Source: an uncultured Verrucomicrobiae bacterium (lineage in GTDB: Bacteria > Chlamydiota > Chlamydiia > Chlamydiales > Rhabdochlamydiaceae). Taken from it: DNA of 64,000 nt. This document shows positions 1,737 through 40,920 of the stretch, piece by piece. The stretch lies in NCBI GenBank assembly GCA_963731265.1, contig CAVSUE010000001.1:416001-480000 (forward strand), read 5' to 3'. The position numbers were made by a program, and so were the translations under genes. The notes beneath the pieces are model-generated. The model did not search any database and had not been told where the DNA came from. It saw only the letters and a list, made by a program, of their open reading frames with translations. Positions within the stretch are counted from its first letter, which is position 1. Each line of letters begins with the position of its first letter.

Positions 1737-1831
1737 CCTTGGGGGCGCGCGTAAAAAATAAATTGAATAGTAATATTAATTTATGTTATTTATGTAATTA
1801 AGTGTCAAAAAGAGTTTGTGGATCATTTATT

Positions 1832-4231
1832 ATGAGAAAGTATTTTCCTCTTATTTCAATGATATTGATCTTTCCCGGGTTTTCAGAGGAGTTAATCAAT
1901 CAATGCAGTTTCACTCCCGAGATTGATTATGAGATAGTTTTCATCAGTGAAAAACAAACCAGCTCCTATCAAAAGTTTTCAAAGGAAAAAAACAAGCTCA
2001 TCGAGATAAAAAAACAACTTATCGACAAAGAAAAGCAACTCATTCAAAGAAACAGAGAACTTGTCGCAAGGGAAAAAGAAATTGAAAGACAAAGACAGCT
2101 TCTCAAACAGGAAAGAGAAGATCAGCTCTTCTTGAACGCAAACAAAGAACAACAGTTATCGGTCCAGGCTGAATCGCAAGACATCCGAAGCGACCTTCAA
2201 CCGACGAGCCCGCCGCGCCCTGTCCTGGCGCCTAACAAAGAAGGTGTCGAGAAATGCCGCTCCCCTTTTCGCAACACGCATATAGGTGTGCGCCATACAG
2301 AGGCGCGGGGTGTGGGTTACAAAGATGGGTATACAACTCTAGAAGGATTCGGGATTTATGGCGAATCTTCTTCATGGATGCCTTTTTTTGATATTCGGGG
2401 ACACGTCTTTGATAATGGCAAATTTGCAGGCAATGTCGGAATTGGAATGAGAAACTACTTGCCGTCGATCGATCATTATTTTGGCGGGTACTTGTATTAC
2501 GATGTTCGCCAAAGTACTCACGGTTTGATGCCTCAACAGCTGAGCCCGGGAATGGAGTTGCTTGGAAAGCGCATGGAATATCGGATCAATGGATACTTTC
2601 CTGTAGGGAATGATGGAGGCAGAAAATATGATTTCAAATTCGAGGAATTCGAAGGGAATCGGATCATCGTCAAAGGTAAACAACAGCGCACCATGACGGG
2701 GGGAGATGCGGAAATCGGCGTCCATGTGACCCAAAGTACAAAATATGATGTCTATGCCGGCGCCGGACCTTATTATTTTACCGCCTCCGATCGGTCCTCC
2801 TGGGGAGGCAAAGCACGGCTGCTCGGGCGCTATAAGCAATGGGTTTCCCTCGAAGCTTCGTATTCTTATGACCGCCTTTTTGGAAACGTTGTGCAAGGAA
2901 CAATTTCCCTTAACGCTCCTTTTGGCAGCAAAATCAGACAAAAAGGAAAAACATGCAATGATCAGGTCAATCTCGCTCTCGGCCGCGTCGCCTATTCTCC
3001 CTACCGATTTGAAATTCCTGTTGTGAAAAAAATCACCAAAAAAACAAAGGCGGTCAATCCCGCTACAAACGATCCCTGGAAAGTGTGGTTTGTCAACAAC
3101 ACGAGCAGTTCGGATGGAACATTCGAAAGCCCCTTCCCGACATTGGCGCAAGCGCAAAACGCTTCTTCTCCAAATGATATGATCTATGTTTTCCCTGGGG
3201 ACGGCACGACGACGGGCATGAACATGGGAATCGTTCTCCAAAACGGCCAGGATCTATTCGGCTCAGGGATCTCCCACACGATTAAGACAAAACAAGGGAA
3301 AATCAAAATTCCGGCCTTTTCCACCACAGCTCCCAACATCACTAATGCGACGAGCATCGTCACCTTAGCTAACGACAATGAAGTATCGGGCTTTAACATT
3401 CTCGCTACCCAAATCAATTCGATTGGGATCAATGGGACCTCGGGCATTCAAAACACCAATATCAATCACAACGTCATTTCAGGAAGCATCGATTATTCAG
3501 GCATCTTTGTTATCGCAGGAGGAAAGCTGTTTGTCAGAGATAACCAGCTGACTGGAGCATTCAGCACCGTGAACGATGGCATACATATACAAAATCCAAT
3601 GCAGTCAGGAATCGATGTCAATGTTTCTAACAATACCATCTATGGTTTCCACAATGGAATTCGCGTGGGGCCCCCCGCTCCGCTAAAGGCTACAGGAGCT
3701 GTCTTAATTTCAAACAATTTCATCTCAAACTTTAGCAGTTTTGGAATCGACTATGAAACCGGGATGCTAAATTCTACGACTCAGATCGAAGACAATACTG
3801 TGATTAATAATGTGGGTATAAATACGTCAATAGGTATCGCAGTGATTCTCAATAACGCGCCTAATGCAGGGACGTGTTACATCACAGGCAACTCGGTGAC
3901 GACCACGACTTCGGCTGGCCTATCGTATGGCGTGTTAACCGAAATAGGCTCGCCTCAGCCCATGTCGGCGACTTTCATCATCTCGGATAATGGGATACTC
4001 ACAGGACCCACTGCTGGTTCAGTTGGGTTAAATATAAGATCTAATAATGCACCCGCTAGCATTTGTGCAGACGTGACTAACAACACAGTCCAGCTGCAGG
4101 CACCGAATACTTTCGGCCTTTCGGTCACGGCTATGGGATCTGTCAATTTCGAAGAGGCTTCATTCTCCAACAACGTGTTCCCAAATATTAGCTTCACGGG
4201 AGATGTCAACTTCGTCGAAAGCTGCCAGTAG
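1832..4231 (+). CDS. Inverse-autotransporter beta-domain outer membrane protein with beta-helix-like passenger
   Basis: Signal peptide, coiled coil, barrel segment with GNVGIG.R...YLYYD...QQLSPGMELLG...RINGYFPVG, then DGTFESPF and Asn/Ile/Gly-rich parallel beta-helix-like repeats. Confidence 0.7.
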   Translation: MRKYFPLISMILIFPGFSEELINQCSFTPEIDYEIVFISEKQTSSYQKFSKEKNKLIEIKKQLIDKEKQLIQRNRELVAREKEIERQRQLLKQEREDQLFLNANKEQQLSVQAESQDIRSDLQPTSPPRPVLAPNKEGVEKCRSPFRNTHIGVRHTEARGVGYKDGYTTLEGFGIYGESSSWMPFFDIRGHVFDNGKFAGNVGIGMRNYLPSIDHYFGGYLYYDVRQSTHGLMPQQLSPGMELLGKRMEYRINGYFPVGNDGGRKYDFKFEEFEGNRIIVKGKQQRTMTGGDAEIGVHVTQSTKYDVYAGAGPYYFTASDRSSWGGKARLLGRYKQWVSLEASYSYDRLFGNVVQGTISLNAPFGSKIRQKGKTCNDQVNLALGRVAYSPYRFEIPVVKKITKKTKAVNPATNDPWKVWFVNNTSSSDGTFESPFPTLAQAQNASSPNDMIYVFPGDGTTTGMNMGIVLQNGQDLFGSGISHTIKTKQGKIKIPAFSTTAPNITNATSIVTLANDNEVSGFNILATQINSIGINGTSGIQNTNINHNVISGSIDYSGIFVIAGGKLFVRDNQLTGAFSTVNDGIHIQNPMQSGIDVNVSNNTIYGFHNGIRVGPPAPLKATGAVLISNNFISNFSSFGIDYETGMLNSTTQIEDNTVINNVGINTSIGIAVILNNAPNAGTCYITGNSVTTTTSAGLSYGVLTEIGSPQPMSATFIISDNGILTGPTAGSVGLNIRSNNAPASICADVTNNTVQLQAPNTFGLSVTAMGSVNFEEASFSNNVFPNISFTGDVNFVESCQ

Positions 4232-4347: not shown

Positions 4348-5484
4348 ATGGCTAAATTTCCGGTCGCTCAAAACCCGCTGCTCCTCCGCTATCACCGACT
4401 CATGGACGCTTTTGCTAAATCCGACGATGAACGCGATTTTTATCTCGATAAGATAGAAGGGTTTATAGTTTATGCCGACATGGACAAAGGACCAAAAGAA
4501 ATCGAGGATTTGGATGTGGAGCTCGCGGCAAATGCTGAGCGCTACTGCATGCTTCCAAAAATGACTTTCTATGAAACTAAAAAATTCATGGAAGGGTTTG
4601 TTAATGAAAAAGTTTACGATATTGATACGAAGGAAAAGCTTCTCGACATCATCCAATCCAAAGAAGCGCGCGATAACTTCTTAGAATTCATCTACGACCA
4701 TTTAACGGAACTGGAAAAATGGCAGCAGTATTACGTCGAGCGTTCGCGCATCCGCATCATTGAATGGCTGCGTTCGCAAAATATTCAATTCGTTTTCGAA
4801 GAAGATCTCGACATTAATAAAAACATGATGGAAAAGCTGAAGCGGCATTTGTTCGATGCGAAAGTGCCTAAAGAAATCGCTGCGGTCCGCGAAGCCCTCG
4901 TCGCGAAAGCGAAAACTTACTATTCGAATGAGGCATTAAATCCTCGCCCCAAGCGCGGAAGGCCGCCGAAGCAAGTGGCCAAGGTTGAGGTTGAACCTCA
5001 AGTGACCGTCGACATGTACACAACTGTCCCTCTTCCTTGCCGGCTCTTTCTCTACCTTCCGGAAATTTCAAACGCCGCAAGCGTGACCTTCTCCGCCAAA
5101 TTCGATACGGAGGCTCAACTTCTTGCAAGTTTACGGGGCAGCACGCGCGTAAAAGTCGATACGCGTCTTCAAGCGCTTTCCGAGCGCCTTGAATCGCTGA
5201 GAACATTGTCTAGCCGCCTTGCGGGGATTGAAGATCTCACGGGTGGTGTCGAAGGGCGCCTGATCAAAGCCGTCAGCAAGAAAACGGAAGCATTAAAAGA
5301 GGACGAAGAAGTCGAAGATGGCGACCATCCGCCGAAAAAAAGGCGCATTATGGAAGTGGTTAAAGGGTTTCTTCCCGGTGGTAAGAACAAAGAGAAGAGC
5401 TTGGCTAAGCCTGAGTCGGAAGTGAAAAAGCCCGGCGTCAAGATGGTCACCAAAATCGAATCCAAAAAACCCAAGAAGAAGTGA
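4348..5484 (+). CDS. UPF0158 family protein (conserved chlamydial protein)
   Basis: QNPLLLR...LMDAFAKSDDERDFYLD...FYETKKFMEGFVNEKVYDIDTKEK and NPRPKRGRPPK, recognised chlamydial motifs. Confidence 0.75.
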   Translation: MAKFPVAQNPLLLRYHRLMDAFAKSDDERDFYLDKIEGFIVYADMDKGPKEIEDLDVELAANAERYCMLPKMTFYETKKFMEGFVNEKVYDIDTKEKLLDIIQSKEARDNFLEFIYDHLTELEKWQQYYVERSRIRIIEWLRSQNIQFVFEEDLDINKNMMEKLKRHLFDAKVPKEIAAVREALVAKAKTYYSNEALNPRPKRGRPPKQVAKVEVEPQVTVDMYTTVPLPCRLFLYLPEISNAASVTFSAKFDTEAQLLASLRGSTRVKVDTRLQALSERLESLRTLSSRLAGIEDLTGGVEGRLIKAVSKKTEALKEDEEVEDGDHPPKKRRIMEVVKGFLPGGKNKEKSLAKPESEVKKPGVKMVTKIESKKPKKK

Positions 5485-5490
5485 GGGGTC

Positions 5491-7728
5491 ATGGAGCCAG
5501 TTGCAAAACTCCACCCCAGCGAAAAATCGAGGATTTTGGCGATTTCTGGCCAGGACCTGCATGCAGGTCCGGCCGGCGGTGGCGAAGACATATTTGGGAA
5601 AGTAGAAAAGCCGCCGCCGGGGCAAGGCGCGCCAAAAGAACGATTTTCCGCGGCGAAGAGTTTTGCAACTGGCTCACCGGTCTATCAAGAGCTCGAAGTC
5701 ATCGAAGATGCCCAAATCAATGGCAAAGAGAAATGTCTTAAAGTTCTTGAAGCCATGTACTGGACCCGTTTTGCCGATGAGAAAATGCAAAAGCTCATCC
5801 GCCAAAATAAAGGTGGCACTTTTCATCTTTGCGTCTCCGGCCATGAAATGACCGGCGCCGTCTGCGCGCTTTCCTTGACGCCTGGAAAAGATTGGGGCCT
5901 GCCCTATTACCGCGACCGCGCTTTTGCCATTGGGATCGGCTGTTCGCTTCGAGATATCATCGGCGCATGCCTCTCCCGCGCCGTCCCTCATCATTCCGGG
6001 GGCAGAATGATGCCGGAACATTTCACGCACAAAGGATTGCGGATCCCTTGCCAATCGAGCTGCGTCGGGTCGCAATTTCTACACGCTGTCGGTGTGGCCA
6101 AAGGGATCCAGCTTGCGGGCAAGGACGAGGTTGTCTATGTCTCTGCTGGAGACGGAGCTACTTCGCAAGGCGATTTCCATGAAGCGCTCAATTTTGCCTG
6201 CCTCCATTCTTTAAGTGTTATCTTCGTCATTCAGGACAACGGCTGGGCGATCTCGGTTCCGGTCAGAGATCAAACCGCAGGCGGGACGATCGTCAAATTG
6301 GCGCAAGGCTATGAAGGGCTGTCTGTCTTTGATGTCGACGGTTGCAATTACGAAGAGATTTCCAAAGCGATGTCGGCAGCTGTCGTCAAGGGTCGCGCAA
6401 AAGAAGGGCCAAGCCTGATCGTCGCCAAAGTGCCGCGCATCGGGGCTCATAGCAGCAGCGACGACCCCTCCAAATACAAAGAAAAAGGCTGCATCGAAGA
6501 AGAGAAAGCAAGAGACCCGATTCCCCGTTTTGAGTCCTGGTTGTTGGATATGGGGCTTATCTCTTTAGAAGAACTTGAAAGAATGAAAGAGCGTTGTTTG
6601 CATCAAGTGGAGTCTGCCTCTTTGGAAGCGGAACAGATTCCCTTCCCTGAAAAAGGAACGGCCACTAAAGGGGTCTTCAAAGACGTCGACGTTTCTCAAT
6701 TCACTCCTTTTTCTGAAGAGGATTCTCCTTCTGCGACCGATAGCATCGTCATGATGGACGCGTTAAACCACGCCTTGGACGAAGAGATGAAGCGCGACCC
6801 TCAAGTTATCGTGTTCGGCCAGGATGTCGCTCATGGAAAAGGCGGAGTCTTTGGCATCACGCGTCATTTGACAGAGAAACACGGTGTGGAGCGCTGTTTC
6901 AATTCGCCTCTCGCCGAATCGAGCATCATCGGAATCGCGATGGGTATGTCGATGGCGGGCTGCAAGCCTGTGGCAGAAATTCAGTTTGCCGATTACATGT
7001 GGACGGGCGTCAATCAGCTCTTCAATGAACTCGCCAGCCTCTATTACCGCGCCAACGGCGAGTGGCATTGCCCCGTCGTACTACGCATGCCTTACGGAGG
7101 CTATATTCAAGGTGGCCCATACCATTCGCAGAGCATCGAAGCATTCTTAGCCCACGCCCCGGGCCTTAAAGTCGTTGTCCCGAGCAATGCGGCCGATGCG
7201 AAACGCCTCCTCAAAGCTGCGATACGCGATCCCAATCCTGTTATTTTTCTGGAACACAAAGCCCTTTACCGCCAGCGCGTTTTTTGTGCCCGGAAAGAGC
7301 CAAAAGACAACGAACTTCAACCGTTCGGAAAGGCGAAAGTCATCCGCAGTGGGGATGATATCACCTTGGTTTGCTGGGGAATGATGGTCTTCATGGCCTC
7401 GCAAGTCGCCGATACTCTTGCCAAAGAAGGCATTTCTGTGGAAGTGATCGATCTGCGCACGATTGTGCCTCTCGATATGCCGACTGTGCTGGAGTCGGTG
7501 CGCAAAACAGGTAAAGTCCTCGTTGCGCACGAAGCGGCGCGAACATGTGGTTTTGGCGCAGAAATTTCCGCCCGGATCGTTGAAGAAGCCTTCCAATACC
7601 TAGATGCCCCCGTGCAACGCGTCACTGGCAAAGATTGTCCCGTCCCTTACTGCAAAGATCTCGAAGATGAGGTCTTGCCCCAGATCAAAGATTTAGAAAA
7701 AGGAATCCGCGACCTCGTCAGTTTTTAA
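5491..7728 (+). CDS. 2-oxoacid (2-oxoisovalerate/pyruvate) dehydrogenase E1 fused alpha/beta subunit, with an N-terminal in-frame palindromic insert
   Basis: TPP motif GDGATSQGDFHEALN, HSSSDD, beta-subunit motifs VFGQDV, EIQFADY, HSQS, EVIDLRT. GAGG RBS before the ATG. Confidence 0.92.
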   Translation: MEPVAKLHPSEKSRILAISGQDLHAGPAGGGEDIFGKVEKPPPGQGAPKERFSAAKSFATGSPVYQELEVIEDAQINGKEKCLKVLEAMYWTRFADEKMQKLIRQNKGGTFHLCVSGHEMTGAVCALSLTPGKDWGLPYYRDRAFAIGIGCSLRDIIGACLSRAVPHHSGGRMMPEHFTHKGLRIPCQSSCVGSQFLHAVGVAKGIQLAGKDEVVYVSAGDGATSQGDFHEALNFACLHSLSVIFVIQDNGWAISVPVRDQTAGGTIVKLAQGYEGLSVFDVDGCNYEEISKAMSAAVVKGRAKEGPSLIVAKVPRIGAHSSSDDPSKYKEKGCIEEEKARDPIPRFESWLLDMGLISLEELERMKERCLHQVESASLEAEQIPFPEKGTATKGVFKDVDVSQFTPFSEEDSPSATDSIVMMDALNHALDEEMKRDPQVIVFGQDVAHGKGGVFGITRHLTEKHGVERCFNSPLAESSIIGIAMGMSMAGCKPVAEIQFADYMWTGVNQLFNELASLYYRANGEWHCPVVLRMPYGGYIQGGPYHSQSIEAFLAHAPGLKVVVPSNAADAKRLLKAAIRDPNPVIFLEHKALYRQRVFCARKEPKDNELQPFGKAKVIRSGDDITLVCWGMMVFMASQVADTLAKEGISVEVIDLRTIVPLDMPTVLESVRKTGKVLVAHEAARTCGFGAEISARIVEEAFQYLDAPVQRVTGKDCPVPYCKDLEDEVLPQIKDLEKGIRDLVSF
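5494..5675. mobile_element. RPE-like palindromic element/MITE inserted in frame in the E1 gene
   Basis: Perfect 18-bp terminal inverted repeats GAGCCAGTTGCAAAACTC (5494-5511) / GAGTTTTGCAACTGGCTC (5658-5675); internal hairpin GGACCTGCATGCAGGTCC. Confidence 0.8.
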
Positions 7729-8606
7729 AAGGGGTGAAACACCTGCCGTAGCTTGTGTTGGAACATCAGCAATTCAGGGTCATTGGGGTAACTTCGCACT
7801 GCAAAAGTTAATGTGTCCGCTGCCTCTCTGAACATTCCAAGACAAAAGAAATTTCCAATTTTATTTATGAGTGCGAATAGGTTGTGAGGATGTAATTGAA
7901 GGACTTTATCGGTGAGGACAAGAGAATTTCTATACTTACCCAAATGGTATAAGGCTGTTCCTTTATTGATCAAAGCAATAACGTTATCAGAATTAATGAA
8001 AAGTGCGCTTTCTGCAGCTTGATTACACTCCTGCCATTGATGCATCAGCCGCAAAACTTCGGATTTACAAGCATAAGCTTCTGCATTCTGTGGATTAGCC
8101 TCAATCGCAAGATTGGCATGATAAACAACTTGGTTATAATGCTCCCTCCTCTCGGTTTTTAAAAGGGTAATGGCAAGCTCAAGTTCTCTTCTTGAAAATG
8201 TATAATCTAGGGGAACCGGGCCTGACGTCAGTTCGTAACTGTGCGTAATTTCTTGGGGTTCATAAGTTGGAGCATTGAATGGTCGGAGGTTCTGAGAATC
8301 CCTAACATGCTCTTGTTGCGGAACATAATTTAGCCTAAAATTCAAGTCTTGCACGGTTTGTTGCAGCGTTGCATTTTCGTGCTCGAGTTGCGCCACTCTA
8401 GCTTTCAAATAATCACGTTCAGCAGTCATCATAGTCAATGGCGTATTTGCCACAAGTTGATCAAACGAAATTTGCATGATTGGTAACGGACGCCCAGGCT
8501 GTGGCGAATCTGTTTGGAGAGGAGGTAAAACATACCCATATGGATGATGAAGGGCCTCGGCAGGTGGAGAAACAAGATATGATATTTGGATGTTTTGCAT
8601 GCTCAT
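7725..8606 (-). CDS. TPR-repeat protein with Pro/Gln-rich N-terminus (candidate effector)
   Basis: Repeats such as AIEANPQNAEAYACKS, ALINKGTALYHLGKY, LQLHPHNLFALINK. AAGGAG RBS supports ATG 8606. Confidence 0.75.
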   Translation of the reverse strand: MSMQNIQISYLVSPPAEALHHPYGYVLPPLQTDSPQPGRPLPIMQISFDQLVANTPLTMMTAERDYLKARVAQLEHENATLQQTVQDLNFRLNYVPQQEHVRDSQNLRPFNAPTYEPQEITHSYELTSGPVPLDYTFSRRELELAITLLKTERREHYNQVVYHANLAIEANPQNAEAYACKSEVLRLMHQWQECNQAAESALFINSDNVIALINKGTALYHLGKYRNSLVLTDKVLQLHPHNLFALINKIGNFFCLGMFREAADTLTFAVRSYPNDPELLMFQHKLRQVFHPF

Positions 8607-8633
8607 AGATAATAAACTCCTTAGAAGAGGAGA

Positions 8634-8663
8634 ATTATACTTATCACGAAACATTTGTGTAAA
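8634..8663 (-). promoter_or_regulatory. Putative sigma66 promoter of the TPR gene
   Basis: Minus strand TTTACA-18 nt-TATAAT. Confidence 0.5.
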
Positions 8664-8766
8664 GGACCTTGCGACTCCATCAACCCCTCATTAGGGCTTG
8701 ATAGAGCACCAGTTGTGAAGAATCAGCCATGCTGTTAAAACATGAGCCGAAATATTCGAGCTAAAA

Positions 8767-9540
8767 ATGATTGGTTTTTGTCCACTGGCCTCCGGATCGA
8801 AGGGAAACTGCATTTATTTGGGAACCTTGACCACGAAAATCCTCATCGATGCAGGGATCAGCGCAAAAGCGATCCGTGAGCGGCTCAAAACGATTGGCGT
8901 AACTTTAGAGGAGATCGATGCGGTCCTCATCACGCATGAGCATACGGACCATATGCAAGCGTTGGATGTTTTGGGCTGTAAGATGCGGATCCCGGTGTTT
9001 GCCAATAGCGATACGGCAAAAGCGATCTATGGGATTTTAAACGAGTGCCCCAAATTTAAGATCTTCTCCACGGGCGAGACATTTGAATATGGCGATCTTG
9101 AAGTCCACCCCTTCAGCGTGCAGCACGATGCTGTCGATCCTGTGGCCTTCACGATACGAACAGGTGGTTTGAAGCTAGGCTTTTGTACAGATCTCGGATT
9201 TGTAACGAGCTTGGTCTCAAACCAATTGAAAGGTTGCGATTACTTATACGTCGAGGCTAATCATGAGCCCTCCATGGTCCTCGCCTCTCCGCGGCCAAAG
9301 ATCTACAAGCAACGCGTCTTGAGCAGGCAGGGCCATCTTTCGAATGAGGAATGCGCTCAACTCATCGAGCAAATCTATCACAGCGATTTAAAGCATATCC
9401 ATCTGGCCCATATTTCTAGCGAATGTAATGCTCCCGAAGCCGCTCTAAAGCGCATCATGGATAAGCTTGATTCATTAAATGCTTTAACCGAAGTTTCTAT
9501 CGCTTTTCAAGATGTTCTGAGTAGAAAGATCACTTTCTAA
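8767..9540 (+). CDS. MBL-fold metallo-hydrolase (YycJ/WalJ-like)
   Basis: LASGSKGN, IDAG, THEHTDH, HDAVDP, TDLG, EANH, GHLSN, LAHIS. Confidence 0.9.
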   Translation: MIGFCPLASGSKGNCIYLGTLTTKILIDAGISAKAIRERLKTIGVTLEEIDAVLITHEHTDHMQALDVLGCKMRIPVFANSDTAKAIYGILNECPKFKIFSTGETFEYGDLEVHPFSVQHDAVDPVAFTIRTGGLKLGFCTDLGFVTSLVSNQLKGCDYLYVEANHEPSMVLASPRPKIYKQRVLSRQGHLSNEECAQLIEQIYHSDLKHIHLAHISSECNAPEAALKRIMDKLDSLNALTEVSIAFQDVLSRKITF

Positions 9541-9618
9541 ATCGGATCGTTACCCACATCTCGCCCATATAGCTGCTTTCAGCTATTGACTTCGCCATTC
9601 GGACCGCCTGGGTTCCAT

Positions 9619-10950
9619 CTATAAAGGGATTGTCATCCCATCATAGGCAAAACGGGGACGGCATTTTAAATGCATGTCGTCTAGAACATCGAATTGCAAT
9701 TGCAGTTTTTTAAGCATGTCATTGTCGTTGTGTGTGGGATCGTGATGTGTCAGGATCCATTCCGGAACTTCGGTGTGTTTTAATAATACTGCGGCATTAT
9801 TCACGGAGGAATGCCCCCAGCCTACTTTCTTTTGGTATTCGATTGGGGTGTATTGAGCCTCGTGGATGAGAAAATCACAATCTTTGAAGAACTCGATCAT
9901 GCTCTGGTAGGGATGGAGAAGAGGGTGGTTTTTCCCAATGAGATTCGGGTTGCCGTGATATCCCATGAGGAATTCGTTGTCTGTCGTATAGCCGAACTTG
10001 AGTTTGTTGATTTTAAATTTAAAACAAACTGTGGCCCCTGGATGATAGGAATAATGTGTGTTGATCTCAATGTGTCCGATTTGAAAAGGGACGCTTTCGT
10101 GGATATCTTTGAAAACGAGGTTGGCTTGAATGTCATCGAGGCGTACGGGAAAATAGGAGTGAGCGAGAATTTCCGTGAATAATTCTCGTGTTGTTCTTTC
10201 AAATCCGATGGGCGTCCAGATGTTGATGGTGCAATTGGGTTCGTAAATGGGCGAGAAGAATGGAAATCCTGCGAGGTGGTCCCAATGCGTATGGCTCATG
10301 AGTAAATGGATTTCCTTGGGTTTGGATTCTGCGAGGACGGTTCCGAAAGAGCGGATGCCCGTGCCCGCATCGACGATGATCAGATCGTGGCCATGGCGGA
10401 TTTCCAAACAGCAAGTGTTTCCGCCGAAACGGATATATTCGGGCCCCGAGACGGGATTGGAGCCGCGAGTGCCCCAAAATTTAATATAGGAATTGGGCGA
10501 GTGCATTTTGGGGAGGTAGCAGTGTTTCCCTTCTATTGAAGATTCTTTTCCCGAAAAAGGATCGGGATGCAGTTGATTCTTGAAAAACAGCTTAAAAAGA
10601 GAAAAAAGTTGACCTGCTTCGAAGGGCTTTTCCAAAAAATAATCGCAATTCAGGATCAGCGCAGACCGGTAGTTTTGGCTCATCGCGTGAGCCGAAGTCA
10701 TCACCACGCCAATGTGATTCGTCCTGGGATCGGTCTTGATCTTGCGCAGAATTTCCATCCCATGGATTTGGGGAAGCATCAGCTCGACGATAAGCAAATC
10801 GGGTTTAAATGAGTCAACCTTAGCTAGACATTCGAATCCCGTTTTTGCAGTCTCGAAAAGGTACGGGCTAGCTCCTTTGCTTTTTTTGATCTGCATGAGG
10901 AGCTGCTCATCGGCATCCGCGAGGAGAATTCTCTTTTTTTTCTTTTCCAT
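9619..10950 (-). CDS. Response-regulator receiver fused to MBL-fold hydrolase
   Basis: N-terminal REC fold (RILLAD...DLLIVELMLP...FLEKPF); C-terminal FWGTRGS, GGNTCC, SHTHWDH, HPG, GWGHSS, HHDP. Confidence 0.85.
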   Translation of the reverse strand: MEKKKKRILLADADEQLLMQIKKSKGASPYLFETAKTGFECLAKVDSFKPDLLIVELMLPQIHGMEILRKIKTDPRTNHIGVVMTSAHAMSQNYRSALILNCDYFLEKPFEAGQLFSLFKLFFKNQLHPDPFSGKESSIEGKHCYLPKMHSPNSYIKFWGTRGSNPVSGPEYIRFGGNTCCLEIRHGHDLIIVDAGTGIRSFGTVLAESKPKEIHLLMSHTHWDHLAGFPFFSPIYEPNCTINIWTPIGFERTTRELFTEILAHSYFPVRLDDIQANLVFKDIHESVPFQIGHIEINTHYSYHPGATVCFKFKINKLKFGYTTDNEFLMGYHGNPNLIGKNHPLLHPYQSMIEFFKDCDFLIHEAQYTPIEYQKKVGWGHSSVNNAAVLLKHTEVPEWILTHHDPTHNDNDMLKKLQLQFDVLDDMHLKCRPRFAYDGMTIPL

Positions 10951-11080
10951 AGCAAGGGTGGAAGGTATTGGCTCGGCTTTCCCGCATCTTAGATCGAGAA
11001 GTGGAATATTGTAAATTTTCTTCCAAAAGAGGTTTGAAAATTGGTTGGCAGAAAAACGAAGCTTTCTGGGATTTTGTGTT

Positions 11081-11260
11081 CCTAGTGCCCCGTTTCAAAA
11101 ATTTTTGAGATAATTTCTAGCGTGAAAGCTAGCTAGAATCGACGACCGCAGGCTTCGCAAGTTGATCCGTATTAATTCAATACGGATCAACTTGCGATCG
11201 TCGATTATATCGGCTTTGACGCAGAAATTATTCCAAAAAATTCTGAAATGGGGCACTAGG
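11081..11260. mobile_element. MITE-like palindromic element (CTAG-bounded family)
   Basis: Ends CCTAGTGCCCCGTTTCAAAAATTTTT / AAAAAATTCTGAAATGGGGCACTAGG; internal hairpin CGCAAGTTGATCCGTATT-AATTC-AATACGGATCAACTTGCG. Confidence 0.8.
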
Positions 11261-11264
11261 GTCC

Positions 11265-11666
11265 CTATTCGTGTTTTTGAGGGCCGGGATTTTCTTGAAA
11301 GAGTTTTTTCCTTTTTTTCCAGGCGATGAGAAAACATGAGGTGCCAACGGCCGCAAAGATCAAGGCAACCCAATAGAAGTTAAGCACTTCTGTCGGGCTC
11401 AGCTCGAGTTCTCCCTCTTCCGATAACATTTCGAAGGAGGCCACCGCCTCTGTGAACTCTGGGTCGATCAGACCTTCCTGCGAAGGAGCAAGGGTCTCGG
11501 TGTCTTCTTTGGCGGTGATGGCGTACGTGAATGACACCAGGCACAAGGTGTACATCACATAGCCCATGAATTTGAGACGGGGCAATAATTTTTTTTCGAC
11601 CTCATGAGGGGCGGGAGCTGTGGATTTGAGTTCTTCTAGTTTATTCGAAAAGCTCTTGTTCTTCAT
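11265..11666 (-). CDS. Hypothetical membrane protein (two TM helices)
   Basis: ORF overlapping the ftsK 3' end, with two hydrophobic segments. Confidence 0.6.
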   Translation of the reverse strand: MKNKSFSNKLEELKSTAPAPHEVEKKLLPRLKFMGYVMYTLCLVSFTYAITAKEDTETLAPSQEGLIDPEFTEAVASFEMLSEEGELELSPTEVLNFYWVALIFAAVGTSCFLIAWKKRKKLFQENPGPQKHE

Positions 11667-13995
11667 AAGGGTCCCCTTGTTTAGAAGATGCGGTGGAGTT
11701 CTTGGAATCCATGAGGACGCGGCGAGGTTTTGCGCCTTCTTGAGGGCCGATCACGCCCTTGTTCTCTAATTCATCCATCAAAGATGCAGCCCTAGCGTAG
11801 CCAATTTTGAGTTTGCGCTGCAAGTATGTCGTTGAAGCTGTCTTTGTGTCGACGACGATCGATAAAGCTTGATCGTAAAGAGTATCGCGCGGGCCTTCTT
11901 CTTCAGATGGGGAGGAGGAGTCATCAAAGCGCATTTTGTCGAAGGATTCGATGAGATAATTCGGAGGGGCCTGCTGGCAGATAAAGGATACGACACGATT
12001 GATCTCCTCATCGCTGATGAACGCGCCTTGGGCCCGGATCAGTGTGGAAGAGCCGGGGGGGAGGAAGAGCATATCGCCGTTGCCGAGTAGGCTTTCTGCG
12101 CCGACATCGTCGAGAATGATCTGCGAGTTGACGCGGCTGGCGACTTTGAAAGCGAGTCGCGTGGGGAAGTTCGCTTTGATCAGCCCTGTGATCACTTCGC
12201 GTGAAGGGCGCTGTGTAGCGAGGATAAGGTGGATGCCCACGGCACGGGCCATTTGGGCAATGCGGGCGATCGGCGTTTCCAAATCGGAGCTGGAGGCCAT
12301 CATCAAATCGGCAAATTCATCGATGATTGCGACGATCGTATGCATTTTGACAGGGACAGGAATACTTAACGACGATTCGAGCTCTTTGTTGATTTGGCGG
12401 CTGTTAAAGGCGGTGATGTTGCGTACCCCGAGCTGTTTTAATACCTCGTAACGCGTCTGCATTTCTTTGACGAGCCAGCTCAAAGCTGCATAGGCGCCGT
12501 GCGCCTCCGTGATCACGGGTGCAATCATGTGGGGCAAATTCGTGTAGGGCGTGAGCTCGACTTTTTTGGGATCGATCATCACGAGCTTGATCTCGTCAGG
12601 CCGCGCGTTCATTAAGATCGACATGATGACGGTGTTGATACAGACAGACTTTCCTGATCCTGTCGCTCCGGCGATTAGGCAGTGGGGCATTTTGCTGAGG
12701 TCGCTGATGACGTTGTCTCCGGAAACCGTTTTCCCAAGAAGCAGCGGGACATTCATCTTGCGTGGACTTTGATGGTAGTTCAGATGCAATTCCTTGAAGC
12801 TGACCTCTTGCGGATAAAGCGAGGGGACCTCGACGCCGACGGCGGCTTTGCCAGGAATAGGGGCGATGATACGGATCGATTTTGCCTGAAGATTCAAGGC
12901 GATGTCATTTTCGAGAGTTTTTATCTTCTGTACTTTTACGCCGATTGCGGGATGGACCTCGAACGAAGTGATGGTCGGACCGCAATTGATCTCACCCACT
13001 TTAGCTTCAATCCCGAAGCTCAACAATGTCTCTTCCAGGATCTCCGCTTGCCGCTTCAATTCTTTTTTCAGAGAGGGCTGATCGACTTTTTTGGGGTTAT
13101 TGAGCAGGGAGGGGGAAGGGAGCTGGTATGTGGTGAAATCTCCATTCACGACCTTTTGCGCGTTGATCGCCGCTTGCCTTTTATTGAGGGGAAAAGATTT
13201 AGATTCCGTCGCCGTTTTTTTTTCCGATTCAAGCTTATCGTGCATGGTGCGGATTCTTACGTCGTCGTCATTTTCTTTTCGAGGCCGATAGATCGGTTGC
13301 GGTAGCCGTTTGGAAAGGGTCTTTTCGATCTCATCGGCTGTTTTTGTCTCAAGGACAGGAGTTGCCGTCGCAACGGTTTTTAAGGAAACCAGCTTGTTTT
13401 TAAGGGAGGTTAGAAGAGGAATGAGCTCGACCTCGGTCAATAACAAGAATGAAACGATGGCTGCGATCGAAAACGTGAGTCCGATTCCCACATCGCTGAG
13501 CATGCGCTGAAGATTGAAAGTGGGCAAATCGGAGTAGAGATAATAAAGCGGCACGCCTCCTAAATTATACCTTGTCGTGCGATGGGGAAAGGGGAAATCA
13601 AAAAAATAGGTCTCGGAATAGATCCTGTTTTCAAAAAAACTTCCAAAGGCCGGGCTCCACTCCGCAAACAGGTTTAAAAGTAAAGAGCACGAGACAACTA
13701 AAAAGGCGCAATAGATGGATTTGGAAACGAGGGAGGGTATTTCACGGTTCAAGAGGAATCGCCAGCCCATCCAGCCCAAAAACAAAAGGATGGCGTAGCT
13801 TGACAATCCAAAGAGAAAATATAATCCTAAACCGAGTCCCCAGCCGGCCAATCCGAGTAAATTTTTGCTGGAATCCGCAGCATGAAAACTGAGCAGACTG
13901 AGCAAAGCGATGAGTGAAAATCCGAGCAGGATCAATCCTTTGGCCTCTGACGGCATGCGTGATTTTTTCTTGACGGGCGAACCCTCTTTTGCCAT
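11641..13995 (-). CDS. ftsK: DNA translocase FtsK
   Basis: N-terminal TMs, IAGATGSGKS Walker A, IDPKKVEL, IDEFADLM, ATQRPS, gamma domain LQRKLKIGYARAA. Confidence 0.97.
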   Translation of the reverse strand: MAKEGSPVKKKSRMPSEAKGLILLGFSLIALLSLLSFHAADSSKNLLGLAGWGLGLGLYFLFGLSSYAILLFLGWMGWRFLLNREIPSLVSKSIYCAFLVVSCSLLLNLFAEWSPAFGSFFENRIYSETYFFDFPFPHRTTRYNLGGVPLYYLYSDLPTFNLQRMLSDVGIGLTFSIAAIVSFLLLTEVELIPLLTSLKNKLVSLKTVATATPVLETKTADEIEKTLSKRLPQPIYRPRKENDDDVRIRTMHDKLESEKKTATESKSFPLNKRQAAINAQKVVNGDFTTYQLPSPSLLNNPKKVDQPSLKKELKRQAEILEETLLSFGIEAKVGEINCGPTITSFEVHPAIGVKVQKIKTLENDIALNLQAKSIRIIAPIPGKAAVGVEVPSLYPQEVSFKELHLNYHQSPRKMNVPLLLGKTVSGDNVISDLSKMPHCLIAGATGSGKSVCINTVIMSILMNARPDEIKLVMIDPKKVELTPYTNLPHMIAPVITEAHGAYAALSWLVKEMQTRYEVLKQLGVRNITAFNSRQINKELESSLSIPVPVKMHTIVAIIDEFADLMMASSSDLETPIARIAQMARAVGIHLILATQRPSREVITGLIKANFPTRLAFKVASRVNSQIILDDVGAESLLGNGDMLFLPPGSSTLIRAQGAFISDEEINRVVSFICQQAPPNYLIESFDKMRFDDSSSPSEEEGPRDTLYDQALSIVVDTKTASTTYLQRKLKIGYARAASLMDELENKGVIGPQEGAKPRRVLMDSKNSTASSKQGDPYEEQELFE

Positions 13996-18753: not shown

Positions 18754-20253
18754 TTACCGTTTTAAAGCGCGTTCTTTTTCTTGGAAAATGACTGCGAGAA
18801 AAAAACTTAGAGTTAAAAAAAGGCAGAGCGATGAAAAAGAAATGGCTTTAGTGCGCAGCGAAAAATCGAGGAGGGCCGGAGGATTGGAGACGAATTTCAA
18901 GATCGCGGATGTCCAGCCGTTATTGAGTTGATGAAGCACATCGCTTGCAAAGGGGAGGCAAGGAGATAAAACCAAAGCGGCGAAGAGAAAAAACATGGAT
19001 AGAGAAGCGCACACGGGAAAAAAGAGATTGTAAGCAATGCTCAACAACGGAAATTTATGAAAAAAGAAAAGGACGACGGGAATGGAAACGCAATGAACGG
19101 CCAGATTTACAGCGAGAGCTTTCCGTAAAACCGCCGAGAGCAAATAGCCATGCCGATCGAGGCTTGGCATTTCTTCCAATTCTTTGTAGGAACGTTCTGG
19201 GAGCAAGAAACACATGGCATGATGCATTAACGGATAAAATAGGAAAATGGCAAGCGTGCAAAGGAATGTGAGTTGGAAGCTGAGTTGTATGACGGCAAGA
19301 GGATGAAAAATCATTTCGATGAGCAACCCTGCGCCCAGGGCGTTCAGCCCCGAGATGCGTCTGGAAAGGAGCTGCCCAATGGCTACAAGGGAAATCGCAA
19401 TGTAGGCTCGCTGGATAGACGGGGCATTTCCCAAGAAAAGATAATAACCCGTGATGGCGATAAGAAGAAGAGTTGCGCTAGTCCGATATGAAAAAAAAAG
19501 GCGAAAGATGAAGTTAAAGAATAAAGCGGCCAAAGCAAAATGAAAGCCGGAGATGGCGAGAATGTGCTGAAGTCCGATTTTTCCAAACTCCAAACTTAAA
19601 AGCCGCTCGTCAATGTCGCCGGTTGCAAGGGCATTGAGAAACGTTCGTGCATGGGAATCTTCAATCTTTGCTTTTAAATATTTGGAGAACCTCTTTTTTG
19701 TATCGAATCTCCACTGGGATAAATTAAGAGGAGAATCTGTTACGGCAGTCCAGTTCCAGTTTTTTCGCGGCTTTAAAACAAAATGGTAGTCTCCTTTTTG
19801 GCAAAGGACGCCTTGAATTGCGTAGTCAGTGTTTGCGGGGGGATGCTTGCCGTACAATGGAAGGTAGAGGTGGCAGGGGAGATTAGCGTACACTTTTCCT
19901 TCTGCATCAAACCTCCTCAAGGTTCCTTTGTAAAGCATGGAACGGTTGAAAGGAGAAGATTGTATTTTGACTTGATCGACGTGGAAAATGCCTGCTCCTG
20001 AAATTTTTTCCTGGGGAAGGAGGGTTTTGGGGCAGCGATAGGAGGTAACGAAAAAAGCGGAGAGAAAACCAATCAGTGCCCATGCCCAAACTTTTCGTTT
20101 AGACGAAAGAGTCAACAAAACGAAGCTTAAGAACAAAAACCAGTGAGTATAAAAGCTTGCTGCTGCGCCGAGAAAAACACAGAGTCCAAAGAAAAGGGCA
20201 GGGTTCCTTTCCCAAAACCAGTGAAAATTACTTTTTGGAAACATCTTGGTCAA
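18754..20253 (-). CDS. comEC: ComEC/Rec2 family competence membrane protein
   Basis: GLQHILAISGFHF, PSIQRA, SFQLTF, multiple TMs. Confidence 0.88.
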   Translation of the reverse strand: MTKMFPKSNFHWFWERNPALFFGLCVFLGAAASFYTHWFLFLSFVLLTLSSKRKVWAWALIGFLSAFFVTSYRCPKTLLPQEKISGAGIFHVDQVKIQSSPFNRSMLYKGTLRRFDAEGKVYANLPCHLYLPLYGKHPPANTDYAIQGVLCQKGDYHFVLKPRKNWNWTAVTDSPLNLSQWRFDTKKRFSKYLKAKIEDSHARTFLNALATGDIDERLLSLEFGKIGLQHILAISGFHFALAALFFNFIFRLFFSYRTSATLLLIAITGYYLFLGNAPSIQRAYIAISLVAIGQLLSRRISGLNALGAGLLIEMIFHPLAVIQLSFQLTFLCTLAIFLFYPLMHHAMCFLLPERSYKELEEMPSLDRHGYLLSAVLRKALAVNLAVHCVSIPVVLFFFHKFPLLSIAYNLFFPVCASLSMFFLFAALVLSPCLPFASDVLHQLNNGWTSAILKFVSNPPALLDFSLRTKAISFSSLCLFLTLSFFLAVIFQEKERALKR

Positions 20254-21611: not shown

Positions 21612-21707
21612 AGGCTGTTGTCGAATTAAGCTTCTTCGAGTTTTCGGGATTATTTTGGCCGCTTAAAAAAGTCGAAAATCGACAGAAGTTTAGTTCGACA
21701 ACAGCCT
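21612..21707. mobile_element. Short MITE-like palindromic element
   Basis: 24-bp inverted ends AGGCTGTTGTCGAATTAAGCTTCT / AGAAGTTTAGTTCGACAACAGCCT (2 mismatches). Confidence 0.7.
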
Positions 21708-37143: not shown

Positions 37144-37164
37144 GAAGCGAGTTTATGCTACTTC

Positions 37165-37329
37165 CACTTGAAAGTTAGGAAAATTTCTGCTTCAGCATCT
37201 TCACTCTTACGGCCGTCGTTTTGCGACGGCCTTTTTGTTCGTTCCATCGACAATGTGCTTGCACATGGTCTGCTTCAACAAACAAAAAATTGAAGCGCTG
37301 AAATTGAAATTTTCTATAACTTTCAAGTG
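37165..37329. mobile_element. MITE-like palindromic element between convergent genes; supplies the pgm stop codon
   Basis: Ends CACTTGAAAGTTAGGAAAATTTC / GAAATTTTCTATAACTTTCAAGTG; internal hairpin GGCCGTCG-TTTTG-CGACGGCC followed by T5. Confidence 0.7.
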
Positions 37330-39555: not shown

Positions 39556-39557
39556 TA

Positions 39558-39829
39558 TACTGCCCCCGCTTAGGGTTTATGAATTTTGACTAGTGCACCG
39601 TTGCAAAAATTTTGGAATAATTTCTGCAACGGGGCACTAGCTGCGACTTTGCCAAATCGATCCTTCTCCCTCGGCTTGCTATCCAGCAATGGTCTCCCGT
39701 GTCATCCTGAACTTCGGCTCCGTTATGACCTGCAACCCTCCACTGGATGGTTGCAGCATTCGGCCGCTTCGCTTCGATTTTGCTTTGTCTCGGAGAGTCA
39801 AAATTCGTAAAGCCTAAACGGGCGCAGTA
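39558..39829. mobile_element. MITE with 3-bp TTA/TAA target duplication, containing a nested mini-element
   Basis: 34-bp inverted ends TACTGCCCCCGCTTAGGGTTTATGAATTTTGACT / AGTCAAAATTCGTAAAGCCTAAACGGGCGCAGTA (4 mismatches); TTA at 39555-57 and 39830-32. Confidence 0.85.
39590..39640. mobile_element. Minimal CTAG-bounded palindrome of the 11081 family
   Basis: CTAGTGCACCGTTGCAAAAATT-TTGGAAT-AATTTCTGCAACGGGGCACTAG. Confidence 0.75.
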
Positions 39830-40714
39830 TTACCATTTAAAGTTGGATTTTAAGATGGGCTTCCAAAAACCATTGCCATCGCTGTTTTTAAAAACCTCGA
39901 TGTCGCAGCCCGCCTCGCCAATATCGATCAAGTTCCAGGTTCCACCCTCCTTTTGCGCTGTCGAGCCACTATCGAGAAAGATGGGAAGCCCGCTATTGCG
40001 CAGGTCCGCGATGCAGTGGCGATGCGTATGTCCGTGAAGGTAAAGCTTGATTTTGGGAAACCGTTCGATCAGTTTCTTGAGGGCCTCTTTACGAATTAGG
40101 CTTTTGCGCGGAGATTCCGTAGAAAAAATGGGGAAGTGGTTGACGAGGATCACACGATGGTCCGCGGGGATTTCTTTCAAAGCCGATTCGAGTTTTTGCT
40201 CGAGTTCGGGAGAAAAATACCCATTCGAAGAGACCAATGAAGTCGCAATGGCCGTATCCAATGCCAAAAGCCACCATCCATGCCCCCAATAAGCGGAGGT
40301 TAATTGATCTTCTTTGAGGCTATATTTATCATATGTCTGAGAGAAATGTTCATAAAAAAGTTGCTTTTTATAGGCAGACTTTGTGTATTGATCGTGATTG
40401 CCCGGAAGTGTGAAAACTTTAAAATTTTCCTCTCTTAAACTGTCGACAAACCGTCTGGCCAGCTTAAACTCTTCTTCATGGGAAGTCGTCGTCAAATCTC
40501 CTGTGATTAAAACGGCATCGACTTTTTTTTCGTGGAACACAGGAAGAAGGGTAGTCAAATTGTCGGGTTCGAGCGCATGTTTGCGTGTGAAAAAGAGATT
40601 GAGGTTGCCAAGCCATCTTTTGGAGAAAAATTGGAGAGGATTCCATCCCACTTTAAAAAAATGCAAATCGGAGATGTGGGCTAAGCGGAAAAGAGGTTTT
40701 TCTATCACAGGCAT
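39830..40714 (-). CDS. Calcineurin-like metallophosphoesterase
   Basis: HISDLH, TGDLT, PGNHD, HFP, HGHTH. Confidence 0.9.
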   Translation of the reverse strand: MPVIEKPLFRLAHISDLHFFKVGWNPLQFFSKRWLGNLNLFFTRKHALEPDNLTTLLPVFHEKKVDAVLITGDLTTTSHEEEFKLARRFVDSLREENFKVFTLPGNHDQYTKSAYKKQLFYEHFSQTYDKYSLKEDQLTSAYWGHGWWLLALDTAIATSLVSSNGYFSPELEQKLESALKEIPADHRVILVNHFPIFSTESPRKSLIRKEALKKLIERFPKIKLYLHGHTHRHCIADLRNSGLPIFLDSGSTAQKEGGTWNLIDIGEAGCDIEVFKNSDGNGFWKPILKSNFKW

Positions 40715-40739
40715 AAAAAATGAATAAATTACCTTGCCC

Positions 40740-40877: not shown

Positions 40878-40920
40878 TGGCAGAGAAGTAATTATAGCCC
40901 TTTTTAGATTAAAAATATTT

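Follow-up and report, generated by a model that had tools for sequence, protein, structure and literature searches.

Coding palindromes that sit in frame within genes are associated chiefly with Rickettsia; how they arose there and which enzyme mobilises them are unclear. Models for the domains of the Rickettsia palindromic elements (RPEs) are contained in NCBIfam. RPEs are described as short palindromic repeats that form one long stem-loop in an obligate intracellular host; they are located between genes or in frame within conserved protein genes, to which they add a family-specific peptide, and enzymes tolerate their insertion (PMC2229807, PMC10969869). Their target duplication is entered as '?' in Table 1 of PMC2229807. 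Intragenic bacterial MITEs with open frames are termed 'not unusual' in reviews, where they include ERIC, the 107-bp Correia element, YPAL and QMITE1 of Coxiella (PMC10969869, PMC2229807, PMC5896051). In-frame MITEs are a known kind of element, and the one described here is a member of it. It lies in a 64-kb stretch of chlamydial DNA, designated the window, in whose numbering the coordinates of the locus are given.

The element occupies the 182 bp directly behind the ATG of an E1 dehydrogenase gene and is bounded by perfect 18-bp inverted ends, GAGCCAGTTGCAAAACTC and its exact reverse complement (Table 1), an arrangement that had been noted from the sequence and was borne out when the sequence was read. 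The insert had originally been placed at 5494-5676, which comprises the 182-bp element and one additional base; the element proper ends at 5675. A search of the window for the terminal 18-mer with up to 3 mismatches returned two occurrences, both of them the ends of the element, where 0.09 were expected, and two matches were reached in none of 100 shuffles of the window. The inverted arms continue to 32 nt with 81% complementarity. For the whole element, the predicted folding energy was -102.6 kcal/mol for the RNA (z = -9.25, equalled in 0 of 200 shuffles) and -57.8 kcal/mol for the DNA (z = -8.84). The hairpin spans nearly the full length of the element and forms one long stem-loop, as in palindromic elements, and its left subterminal block corresponds to invariant or near-invariant columns 30-44 of the family alignment A1. 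The ends hold no stop codon in any frame, and the 182-bp element as a whole is stop-free in five of six frames, so that the absence of stops in the frame of E1 is less striking than it might seem and only a weak sign of selection.

Table 1 Features of the element and of the surrounding E1 locus, in window coordinates.
Feature	Position	Strand	Remarks
Upstream ORF, 378 aa, UPF0158 family	4348..5484	+	PF03682, E 7.7e-77
Shine-Dalgarno-like GAGGGG of E1	5483..5488	+	overlaps upstream stop codon
Fused E1 alpha/beta 2-oxoisovalerate/pyruvate dehydrogenase gene	5491..7728	+	745 aa including insert, otherwise intact
ATG, native E1 start, kept ahead of insert	5491..5493	+	sequence read, SD comparison
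MITE, non-autonomous, IS1182/ISUnCu17-type ends, near whole-length hairpin	5494..5675	+	182 bp
Left terminal inverted repeat GAGCCAGTTGCAAAACTC	5494..5511	+	also on L015/L020 ISs
Left subterminal block GAAAAATCGAGGATTTTGG, family-conserved	5521..5539	+	pairs with 5632-5649
Internal perfect 18-nt palindrome GGACCTGCATGCAGGTCC	5553..5570	.	folds as side hairpin
Right subterminal conserved block CCAAAAGAACGATTTTCC	5632..5649	+	family alignment
Right terminal inverted repeat	5658..5675	-	exact reverse complement of left one
ACCG, expected place of 4-bp CATG target duplication	5676..5679	+	mismatch to CATG

The E1 open reading frame (5491-7728) starts MEPVAKL...KSFATGSPVYQELEVI, and the TGA of the upstream UPF0158 ORF, at 5482-5484, lies 6 nt ahead of the E1 start. 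The insert adds 61 stop-free codons to the 745-aa ORF and the ribosome-binding site lies upstream of the ATG, both as the original prediction had it; for ATG 5491, the anti-SD duplex of the GAGGGG at 5483-5488 was calculated at -8.9 kcal/mol, the best among all in-frame start candidates between 5491 and 5800. Removal of 5494-5676 (183 bp) yields ATG CCG GTC TAT (MPVY), just as claimed, and removal of 5494-5679 (186 bp, that is, 182 + 4) yields ATG GTC TAT (MVYQ), which is the commonest N-terminus among orthologues.

The expectation that orthologues would lack the insert also held, with the extension found in 0 of the 120 best matches (70-89% identity, 573-706 aa). Sixty-two orthologues were aligned, at 70-89% identity and with many invariant columns in common with the window E1; their insert columns contained no residue in 56 cases and one residue in 6, and P63 (the CCG codon within 5676-5679) was aligned to Met1 of the orthologues. 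Past the insert, 684 codons are intact, and the nearest orthologue is 89% identical. Both the E1 orthologues and the related copies of the element are from Chlamydiota. An AF2 model of E1 gave a core pTM of 0.82 and pLDDT values below 50 for residues 1-75, although such low values are in part to be expected for the insert, for which the alignment offers no homologue. Solved E1 alpha chains carry 35-80 residues ahead of the region that aligns to residues 72-86 of the window E1.

The same ends were identified on two 1602-bp insertion sequences (ISs), at 10001-11602 of locus L015 and 8417-10018 of locus L020, which encode a 376-aa DUF772 and DDE_Tnp_1 protein, a DDE transposase. By tblastn, the best matches of this transposase, annotated as IS1182 family/ISUnCu17, showed 41-52% identity across 96-99% of the protein, and the ISs so annotated terminate in GAGCCTCTTGCAAAAG and GAGGCACTTGCAAAACTC. 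The top NCBIfam model for the transposase was IS1182, at 94.7 bits against a cutoff of 270 bits, with IS5 models matching as well. Ends of the GAGCCAGTTGCAAAACTC type, with mismatches, are also present on ISUnCu17 and on Acinetobacter and Comamonas ISs. The suggestion that the ends are IS5-like was replaced: they are ISUnCu17-like and probably of the IS1182 family, which is related to IS5 but distinct from IS5 proper. With its inverted ends, its small size, no transposase of its own, and an autonomous IS that carries matching ends, the window element is a MITE. Its interior has nothing in common with the sampled ISs once the terminal 18 bp or so are passed, so that none of them could have given rise to it by simple internal deletion. 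No transposase homologue was found in the window or in the flanks, of up to 10 kb, of the chlamydial MAG loci. Further end pairs were considered as ISs and discarded, namely one of 3164 bp in L034, which encloses ordinary genes and no transposase, and one of 1590 bp in L013, likewise no IS; for the 1179-bp pair in L024, tblastn detected no transposase homologue.

An end-pattern scan of genome_contigs returned at least 124 loci, among which the source genome of the window was not represented. Chlamydiota-type names were borne by 32 loci from 13 MAGs, according to a hand count of titles among the at least 124 matches listed. Among these matches there were 52 distinct paired-end elements, and 26 of the 52, the window copy included, were 160-185 bp long. 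The closest relative among the matches listed, in L033 from a Rhabdochlamydia MAG, was 82% identical over 182 bp. Relatives of about 180 bp with the same ends occurred in at least 13 Chlamydiota MAGs, and one Chlamydiota MAG carried at least eight loci of the family. The element therefore does not stand alone: related copies of about 180 bp, matching ISs and in-frame peptides are all found elsewhere. No match to the element DNA was obtained among plasmids in distant mode. Within the 64-kb window the E1 copy was the only one, also when the family profile was used; a collinear 17-mer and 11-mer at 18856-18987 were rejected as a decayed second copy, since this segment has no inverted ends, and it did not match the family profile at E <= 1. 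The literature covered, which lies outside most subscription journals, contained no description of the element family or of in-frame MITEs in Chlamydiota.

Exact 4-bp target duplications flanked 24 of the 52 copies among the matches listed and both 1602-bp ISs. The window copy has no target duplication (CATG versus ACCG), though its ends are perfect. At the protein level, the flanking residue was repeated across the insert in 13 of 26 carrier proteins. In the modal 182-bp and 122-bp classes the length plus 4 is a multiple of three; as a general rule this was unconvincing, since a hand count found it in 22 of 52 copies. Compensatory changes were observed in 25 of 52 hairpin pairs, with observed values matched in 0 of 500 shuffles, and 94.8% of cells were paired across copies compared to 40-51% in slid controls. 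Because this covariation is family-wide and extends to intergenic copies, it points to the biology of the element itself and not to that of the E1 locus, and the maintenance of the whole-length hairpin by compensatory evolution would imply selection on the element.

Thirty-one other proteins carry the element peptide in frame, as does, in addition, SufS of L027; a word search with the single peptide yielded one longer protein, and a profile of 13 peptides yielded 25. The carriers are unrelated enzymes, for example SufS, LigD, an amino-acid permease, FabD and an SDR, as well as DHquinase, and the inserts lie at the N-terminal or C-terminal end of the protein or within a catalytic domain, repeatedly at codons 2-4. 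In SufS the Aminotran_5 domain is split by the insert at residues 305-359, with a TTAT duplication, and in LigD the ligase domain spans the insert. The FabD and SDR domains begin directly behind their inserts. The peptide borne by the permease is 77% identical to that of the window. A repetitive protein of 2273 aa, P0131, with domain E-values of 0.2-0.3, was dropped as a false positive.

The probable explanation for the locus is that an IS1182-type MITE, mobilised in trans, landed after codon 1 of E1 and that the gene stays in frame with a tolerated tail. The 18-bp ends would be the recognition ends of ISUnCu17-like ISs of the IS1182 family, and because the element has no transposase of its own it would have to be moved in trans by an ISUnCu17-like DDE transposase; judged from the shared ends, an ISUnCu17-like IS is the putative source of the transposase for the window copy. 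Such a transposase would duplicate 4 bp of an AT-rich target, as seen in other copies, and one copy would have inserted directly behind the first codon of a chlamydial E1 alpha/beta gene. E1 stays one 745-codon frame behind its own SD and ATG because 186 bp (182 + 4) is divisible by three, and the frame is kept open because the element ends are stop-free in every frame and the E1 frame meets no stop within the window copy. Ribosomes would probably be loaded either through coupling with translation of the upstream ORF or during transcription, ahead of the closing of the hairpin. Most likely, then, translation would proceed through the insert and E1 would be made with an N-terminal tail of 61-62 residues that is predicted to be disordered. 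This tail is most likely tolerated and neutral, since the N-terminus of E1 alpha varies and is not part of the catalytic core.

A different start site would remove the tail altogether. The hairpin starts at +4 of the E1 mRNA, positions +4..+20 have a P(unpaired) of 0.0, and opening -15..+20 by force costs 32.7 kcal/mol in the predicted mRNA fold; initiation at ATG 5491 on folded mRNA should therefore be poor, and binding of the 30S subunit there should be prevented. The element might then effectively be a 5' leader, with a tail-free E1 that starts at TTG 5536 or ATG 5755. In keeping with this, the record of one orthologue, P0033 (657 aa), has its start placed at the Met equivalent to 5755, and in the L033, L081 and L098 copies the Pfam domain begins 20-60 residues past the element, so that these could equally be leader insertions. 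We nevertheless regard such a leader as unlikely. E1 retains its native SD and ATG undamaged, 6 nt past the upstream stop, TTG 5536 is located within the hairpin, and ATG 5755 (codon 89) is essentially without an SD, with an anti-SD duplex of only -0.5 kcal/mol; no good start was found downstream of 5491. A start at 5755 would also cost about 26 native residues, including GKEKCLKVLEA, which is conserved in near orthologues. In P0121 (SDR) and P0147 (FabD), the conserved first strand lies directly behind the insert with no Met between, and read-through must therefore occur in these proteins.

The same strong structure at the initiation site could mean that the insertion silenced or crippled E1, which would then be a young pseudogene whose frame is open only because the event was recent, as the perfect ends (18/18) and the very stable stem suggest. 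This is very improbable, given that the 684 downstream codons are intact at 89% identity to the nearest orthologue and that, in other genomes, many comparable in-frame copies have been retained in housekeeping genes; the absent target duplication also speaks against a very recent event. Least probable of all is co-option, whereby the hairpin would regulate UPF0158-E1 expression through mRNA stability or translational attenuation, or the peptide would be functional. The compensatory changes that maintain the hairpin and the similarity of the window and permease peptides speak for it, but that covariation includes intergenic copies, and the carrier enzymes are unrelated and interrupted at varied positions. 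Furthermore, a promoter and terminator scan of the element gave no signal exceeding that of shuffles, its best Rfam score, 13.8 bits where the gathering score is 120, was insignificant, and the peptides of all its open frames matched no Pfam or NCBIfam family at E <= 10, the window peptide being predicted as disordered.

With the trans-mobilised MITE as the preferred reading of the E1 locus, we propose, more tentatively, that the copies constitute a new IS1182-type MITE family of about 182 bp, found mainly in Rhabdochlamydiaceae and Parachlamydiales, which is RPE-like and could represent an independent second origin of coding palindromes. The 186-bp geometry, the stop-free ends and interiors that are open in several frames may let this family persist in dozens of housekeeping enzymes, even in catalytic domains. 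If this is true, a second, unrelated family of coding palindromes exists in Chlamydiota, and tolerance of such elements recurs in intracellular bacteria under relaxed selection. As its ends are known and a candidate transposase is at hand, the family would then also be a tractable model for studying how a MITE is made compatible with protein coding and how an enzyme accommodates an insert of 60 residues. For the annotation of MAGs, it matters that the elements lengthen or displace predicted N-termini and divide domains. For E1 itself the effect is likely small, consisting of a predicted disordered N-terminal tail.

The element had been called an RPE-like coding MITE. By analogy and behaviour, as a palindrome with recurrent in-frame insertion, that description stands; it extends to behaviour only, and the peptide matched no RPE or other family model in any open frame at E <= 10. 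Like the RPEs, as these are portrayed in the accounts cited above, the chlamydial element combines one long stem-loop with recurrent in-frame insertion in conserved genes. It differs from them in its host (Chlamydiota, not Rickettsia), its length (182 bp versus 105-146 bp) and its perfect ends (18 bp versus about 12 bp). A clear 4-bp target duplication is present in about half of the copies listed, whereas the tabulated RPE entry is '?', and the element ends, unlike those of RPEs, match an identifiable transposase-bearing IS family. Compared to ERIC, Correia, YPAL and QMITE1, as those reviews present them, it has other ends, another host range and another parent IS family, and its insertions are also located inside catalytic domains (SufS, LigD, DHquinase) and repeatedly at codons 2-4. 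With the ISUnCu17-like ISs of the IS1182 family it has in common the end type GAG(C/G)C..TTGCAAAA(C/G), and the two Rhodothermales ISs (L015 and L020) are flanked by 4-bp duplications, as are copies of the element family; in contrast to these ISs, the window element measures 182 bp and lacks a transposase. If the proposed family is real, it would, to our knowledge, be the first of coding palindromes with an identifiable transposase family.

In the E1 protein, Met1 is separated from native residue 2 or 3 by an IS1182-type MITE that leaves the frame, the SD and the ATG intact, and the insert was missing from all E1 relatives examined. The E1 ORF (5491-7728) encodes 745 amino acids and starts MEPVAKLHPSEKSRILAISGQDLHAGPAGGGEDIFGKVEKPPPGQGAPKERFSAAKSFATGSPVYQELEVI. 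It follows a UPF0158 ORF whose TGA at 5482-5484 overlaps an SD-like GAGGGG at 5483-5488, in agreement with the original prediction of 61 stop-free codons and an RBS upstream of the ATG. The protein matched the NCBIfam PDH E1 beta and alpha models and, in the PDB, the E1 alpha and beta chains of 2-oxoisovalerate and pyruvate dehydrogenases. It is a thiamine-diphosphate enzyme in which E1 alpha and E1 beta are fused. A word-index search for orthologues returned 6080 matches, with source names including Chlamydiota, Chlamydiales and Rhabdochlamydiaceae, and the best 120 (70-89% identity, 573-706 aa) were inspected. The insert had been expected to be absent from orthologues, and none of these best 120 of 6080 started with the extension. 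The N-terminus of near orthologues is M-x-YQ(D/E)LEV. When 62 of the 120 were aligned, the columns of window residues 2-62 were empty in 56 and held one residue in 6, and the orthologue Met1 aligned with window P63. Five orthologues (P0015, P0039, P0043, P0088, P0111) are listed at NCBI as 'MFS transporter', in some cases with 'Verrucomicrobia bacterium' as the source, which looks like propagated misannotation. An upstream 809-aa ORF (1802-4231) matched no Pfam family at E <= 0.001; its N-terminal region is coiled and its C-terminal half is repetitive and rich in Ser/Thr/Asn/Gly.

Read from the sequence, the E1 start is laid out as ...AAGAAGTGAGGGGTC ATG / GAGCCAGTTGCAAAACTC ... GAGTTTTGCAACTGGCTC / ACCGGTCTATCAAGAG. 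The element proper (5494-5675) is 182 bp long with perfect 18-bp inverted ends, directly after the ATG as originally described. With up to 3 mismatches, the terminal 18-mer matched the 64-kb window twice, at the two ends (0.09 expected; two matches in 0 of 100 shuffles). The inverted arms extend inward to 32 nt at 81% complementarity, and the element folds into a single long hairpin with two side hairpins (RNA, -102.6 kcal/mol, z = -9.25; DNA, -57.8 kcal/mol, z = -8.84). Five of six frames lack stops, compared to 1.9 expected from 200 shuffles, which makes openness in the E1 frame less striking. A profile of 18 family copies matched the window only at the E1 copy (E <= 1). A candidate second copy, an exact 17-mer at 18856-18872 and a collinear 11-mer at 18977-18987 that match the element interior, was rejected; because it lacks inverted ends and a profile match, the resemblance is probably due to chance.

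The window also holds five or six further palindromic MITE-like elements, with arms of 26-38 nt at 75-89% complementarity and ends unrelated to those of the E1 element; two have ends CCTCGACTTTGTAA in common. Unlike the E1 element, the four largest (11081-11260, 39557-39830, 45571-45752, 37151-37343) are closed by stops in all six frames, as is 40735-40882; 21612-21707 has two short open frames, neither running past the element.

Features and loci of the E1 element, its relatives and other palindromic elements
Feature	Location or protein	Detail
Left terminal 18-mer	5494-5511	exact reverse complement of 5658-5675
Right terminal 18-mer	5658-5675	exact reverse complement of 5494-5511
Further palindromic elements, window	11081-11260; 39557-39830; 45571-45752 and 40735-40882; 37151-37343; 21612-21707	
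1602-bp IS	L015 10001-11602 and L020 8417-10018	4-bp duplications GGGT and GATT
MITE loci, Zetaproteobacteria	L006, L070, L079, L084	non-chlamydial
MITE loci, Syntrophia	L016, L024, L032, L048, L052, L093, L121	non-chlamydial
MITE loci, Lentisphaera	L010, L050, L123	non-chlamydial
Insert directly after codon 3	P0121, P0134, P0136, P0147, P0123	SDR (P0121), methyltransferase (P0134), FabD (P0147), rRNA adenine dimethylase (P0123)
Insert internal	P0133, P0126, P0140, P0149, P0150, P0137, P0152, P0141	amino-acid permease, 309-369 (P0133); thioesterase (P0126); LigD, inside ligase domain (P0140); inside DHquinase_I (P0149)
Insert near C-terminus	P0135, P0146, P0124	Mur ligase (P0135), MarC (P0146)

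Genome contigs were scanned for the end pattern, in which position 4 could be C or G and position 7 could be A or G. At least 124 loci, not including the source genome of the window, were obtained, against a chance expectation, by our own arithmetic, of ~70 single matches for the whole collection; 80 of these loci included flanking sequence, at most 10 kb. By a hand count of titles among the matches listed, 32 loci came from 13 MAGs with chlamydial names (Chlamydiae, Chlamydiia, Parachlamydiales, Rhabdochlamydia(ceae) or Ca. Acheromyda, the last belonging to Rhabdochlamydiaceae); the others listed were mainly from Lentisphaerota/Victivallales, Verrucomicrobiota, Syntrophia, Desulfobacterales, Zetaproteobacteria and Bacteriovoracaceae, often several per MAG. 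When ends with <=4 mismatches were paired across 60-320 bp, the matches listed resolved into 52 distinct elements, of which 26 were 160-185 bp long (window copy counted, one N-containing copy dropped). Many of these had interior sequence in common with the window copy, the closest listed being from a Rhabdochlamydia MAG (L033, 82% over all 182 bp), and classes of 73-160 bp from other phyla had little in common beyond the ends. Exact 4-bp direct repeats, mostly AT-rich, flanked 24 of the 52 listed copies, and several more were off by one base. The element is a member of a family, and a MITE. In several non-chlamydial phyla, MITEs of 120-191 bp carry the same 18-bp ends around unrelated interiors, and many of them have 4-bp duplications; the end type is distributed far more broadly than the chlamydial 182-bp family.

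The original prediction had likened the ends to IS5-family repeats; IS-type ends with an identifiable transposase were found, and they point instead to IS1182 (ISUnCu17-like) as the parent family. A Rhodothermales MAG carries the same ends 1602 bp apart at two loci, each enclosing a 376-aa ORF with DUF772 and DDE_Tnp_1 domains. This transposase scored highest with the IS1182 model of NCBIfam, followed by IS5 models, every score being below cutoff. In tblastn searches of plasmids it matched 'IS1182 family' transposases of Comamonas (52% identity) and Acinetobacter (41%) and that of 'IS1182-like element ISUnCu17' of Aeromonas (45%), with query coverage of 96-99% across matches. Since these annotated ISs end in GAGCCTCTTGCAAAAG...GAGTTTTGCAAGAAGCTC, GAGGCACTTGCAAAACTC and GAGGCTCTTGCAGAAC, the 18-bp end appears to be a signature of the ISUnCu17-like IS1182 subgroup. 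No MITE-to-IS alignment was found past ~18 bp, and neither the window nor the chlamydial flanks examined (up to 10 kb) contained a transposase homologue. At L015 (8126-13337) the IS splits a large repeat-protein gene into ORFs 8126-10138 and 11547-13337, the upstream half running through the IS end as ...GEPVAKLSNRG. The reference ISUnCu17 (L125, NZ_AP026405.1 25012-27324) is carried by an IncP plasmid, with qacEdelta1/sul1 on one side of it and aac(6')-Ib on the other.

The 61-aa peptide was also found in frame in other proteins. A phmmer search of 1.84 billion representatives gave 12 matches at E <= 1e-3, one of which (P0131) was a false positive; word-index searches of longer proteins gave one match with the single peptide (P0133, 77% identical to the window peptide) and 25 with a 13-row profile. 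Combined, these searches yielded 31 distinct carriers; some Pfam domains in them start directly behind the insert or extend across it. Both flanks were visible in 26 carriers, and in 13 of these the residue preceding the insert was repeated after it, a repeat that a translated 4-bp duplication predicts. At the DNA level, 6 of the 24 most window-like copies (window included) were open in frame for at least 100 codons past the element, 5 of the 6 with Pfam support. On a 1.9-Mb Rhabdochlamydiaceae contig (L027), SufS contains a copy of 167 bp that is flanked by a TTAT duplication and cuts Aminotran_5 into two stretches. The peptide is longer by 15-25 middle residues in P0123, P0124, P0128, P0136 and P0138, which hints at either a larger subfamily or insertions nested in one another.

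The hairpin was assessed in an alignment of 18 copies (179-182 bp), for which RNAalifold gave 52 pairs with double (compensatory) changes at 25. Paired cells made up 94.8%, compared to 40-51% with partners slid 1-3 columns, and the covariation score was 0.373 compared to 0.05-0.12 in the slid controls; none of 500 shuffles reached any observed measure. The copies represent perhaps seven subfamilies, and therefore independent events are fewer than the cells counted. The arms clearly co-vary, which may reflect selection on the hairpin, as transposition intermediate or RNA, or arm-to-arm conversion.

At E1 the flanks are CATG on the left and ACCG on the right, so that a 4-bp target duplication is lacking although the ends are perfect. 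An original insertion at a CATG target would have added 182 + 4 = 186 bp to an ancestral MVYQELEV, in agreement with the orthologues, and the right-hand CATG copy would then have mutated to ACCG; alternatively, 183 bp may have been gained on an MPVYQ ancestor. Anti-SD scores favored the start at 5491 (-8.9 kcal/mol) over a TTG at 5536 (-5.9, but within the stem) and an ATG at 5755 (-0.5), and 5491 is probably the translation start. Read-through from 5491 would place a 61-62-residue N-terminal tail on E1. AF2 modeled residues 1-75 as unstructured (pLDDT ~30, a low value expected where the alignment is empty) and the E1 core with a pTM of 0.82. The left arm starts at +4, the predicted probability of +4 to +20 being unpaired is 0.0, and opening -15 to +20 would cost 32.7 kcal/mol. 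The modeled hairpin counts against easy translation from 5491, and initiation despite it would need either coupling with translation of the UPF0158 ORF or ribosome loading during transcription.

No description of the 182-bp element or of a chlamydial MITE was found in the openly accessible literature searched, and the portions consulted of PMC9997750, PMC13229535 and bioRxiv 10.1101/2024.01.18.576219 treat no chlamydial MITE. According to PMC2229807 and PMC10969869, open frames that continue in frame into host ORFs are common in bacterial MITEs and unusually frequent in Rickettsia palindromic elements (RPEs), with 44 integrations in R. conorii (PMC10969869); QMITE1 and QMITE2 of Coxiella are a further example (PMC5896051). 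The chlamydial element behaves like RPEs and QMITEs in lying in frame with the host ORF, but differs from them in its host, in its size and ends, and in having a parent IS that can be identified. No Pfam or NCBIfam family matched the peptides of its open frames at E <= 10. The proposed RPE-like coding MITE is supported as a likeness in behavior, and the element would represent a second 'coding palindrome' system that arose independently and whose transposase is traceable.
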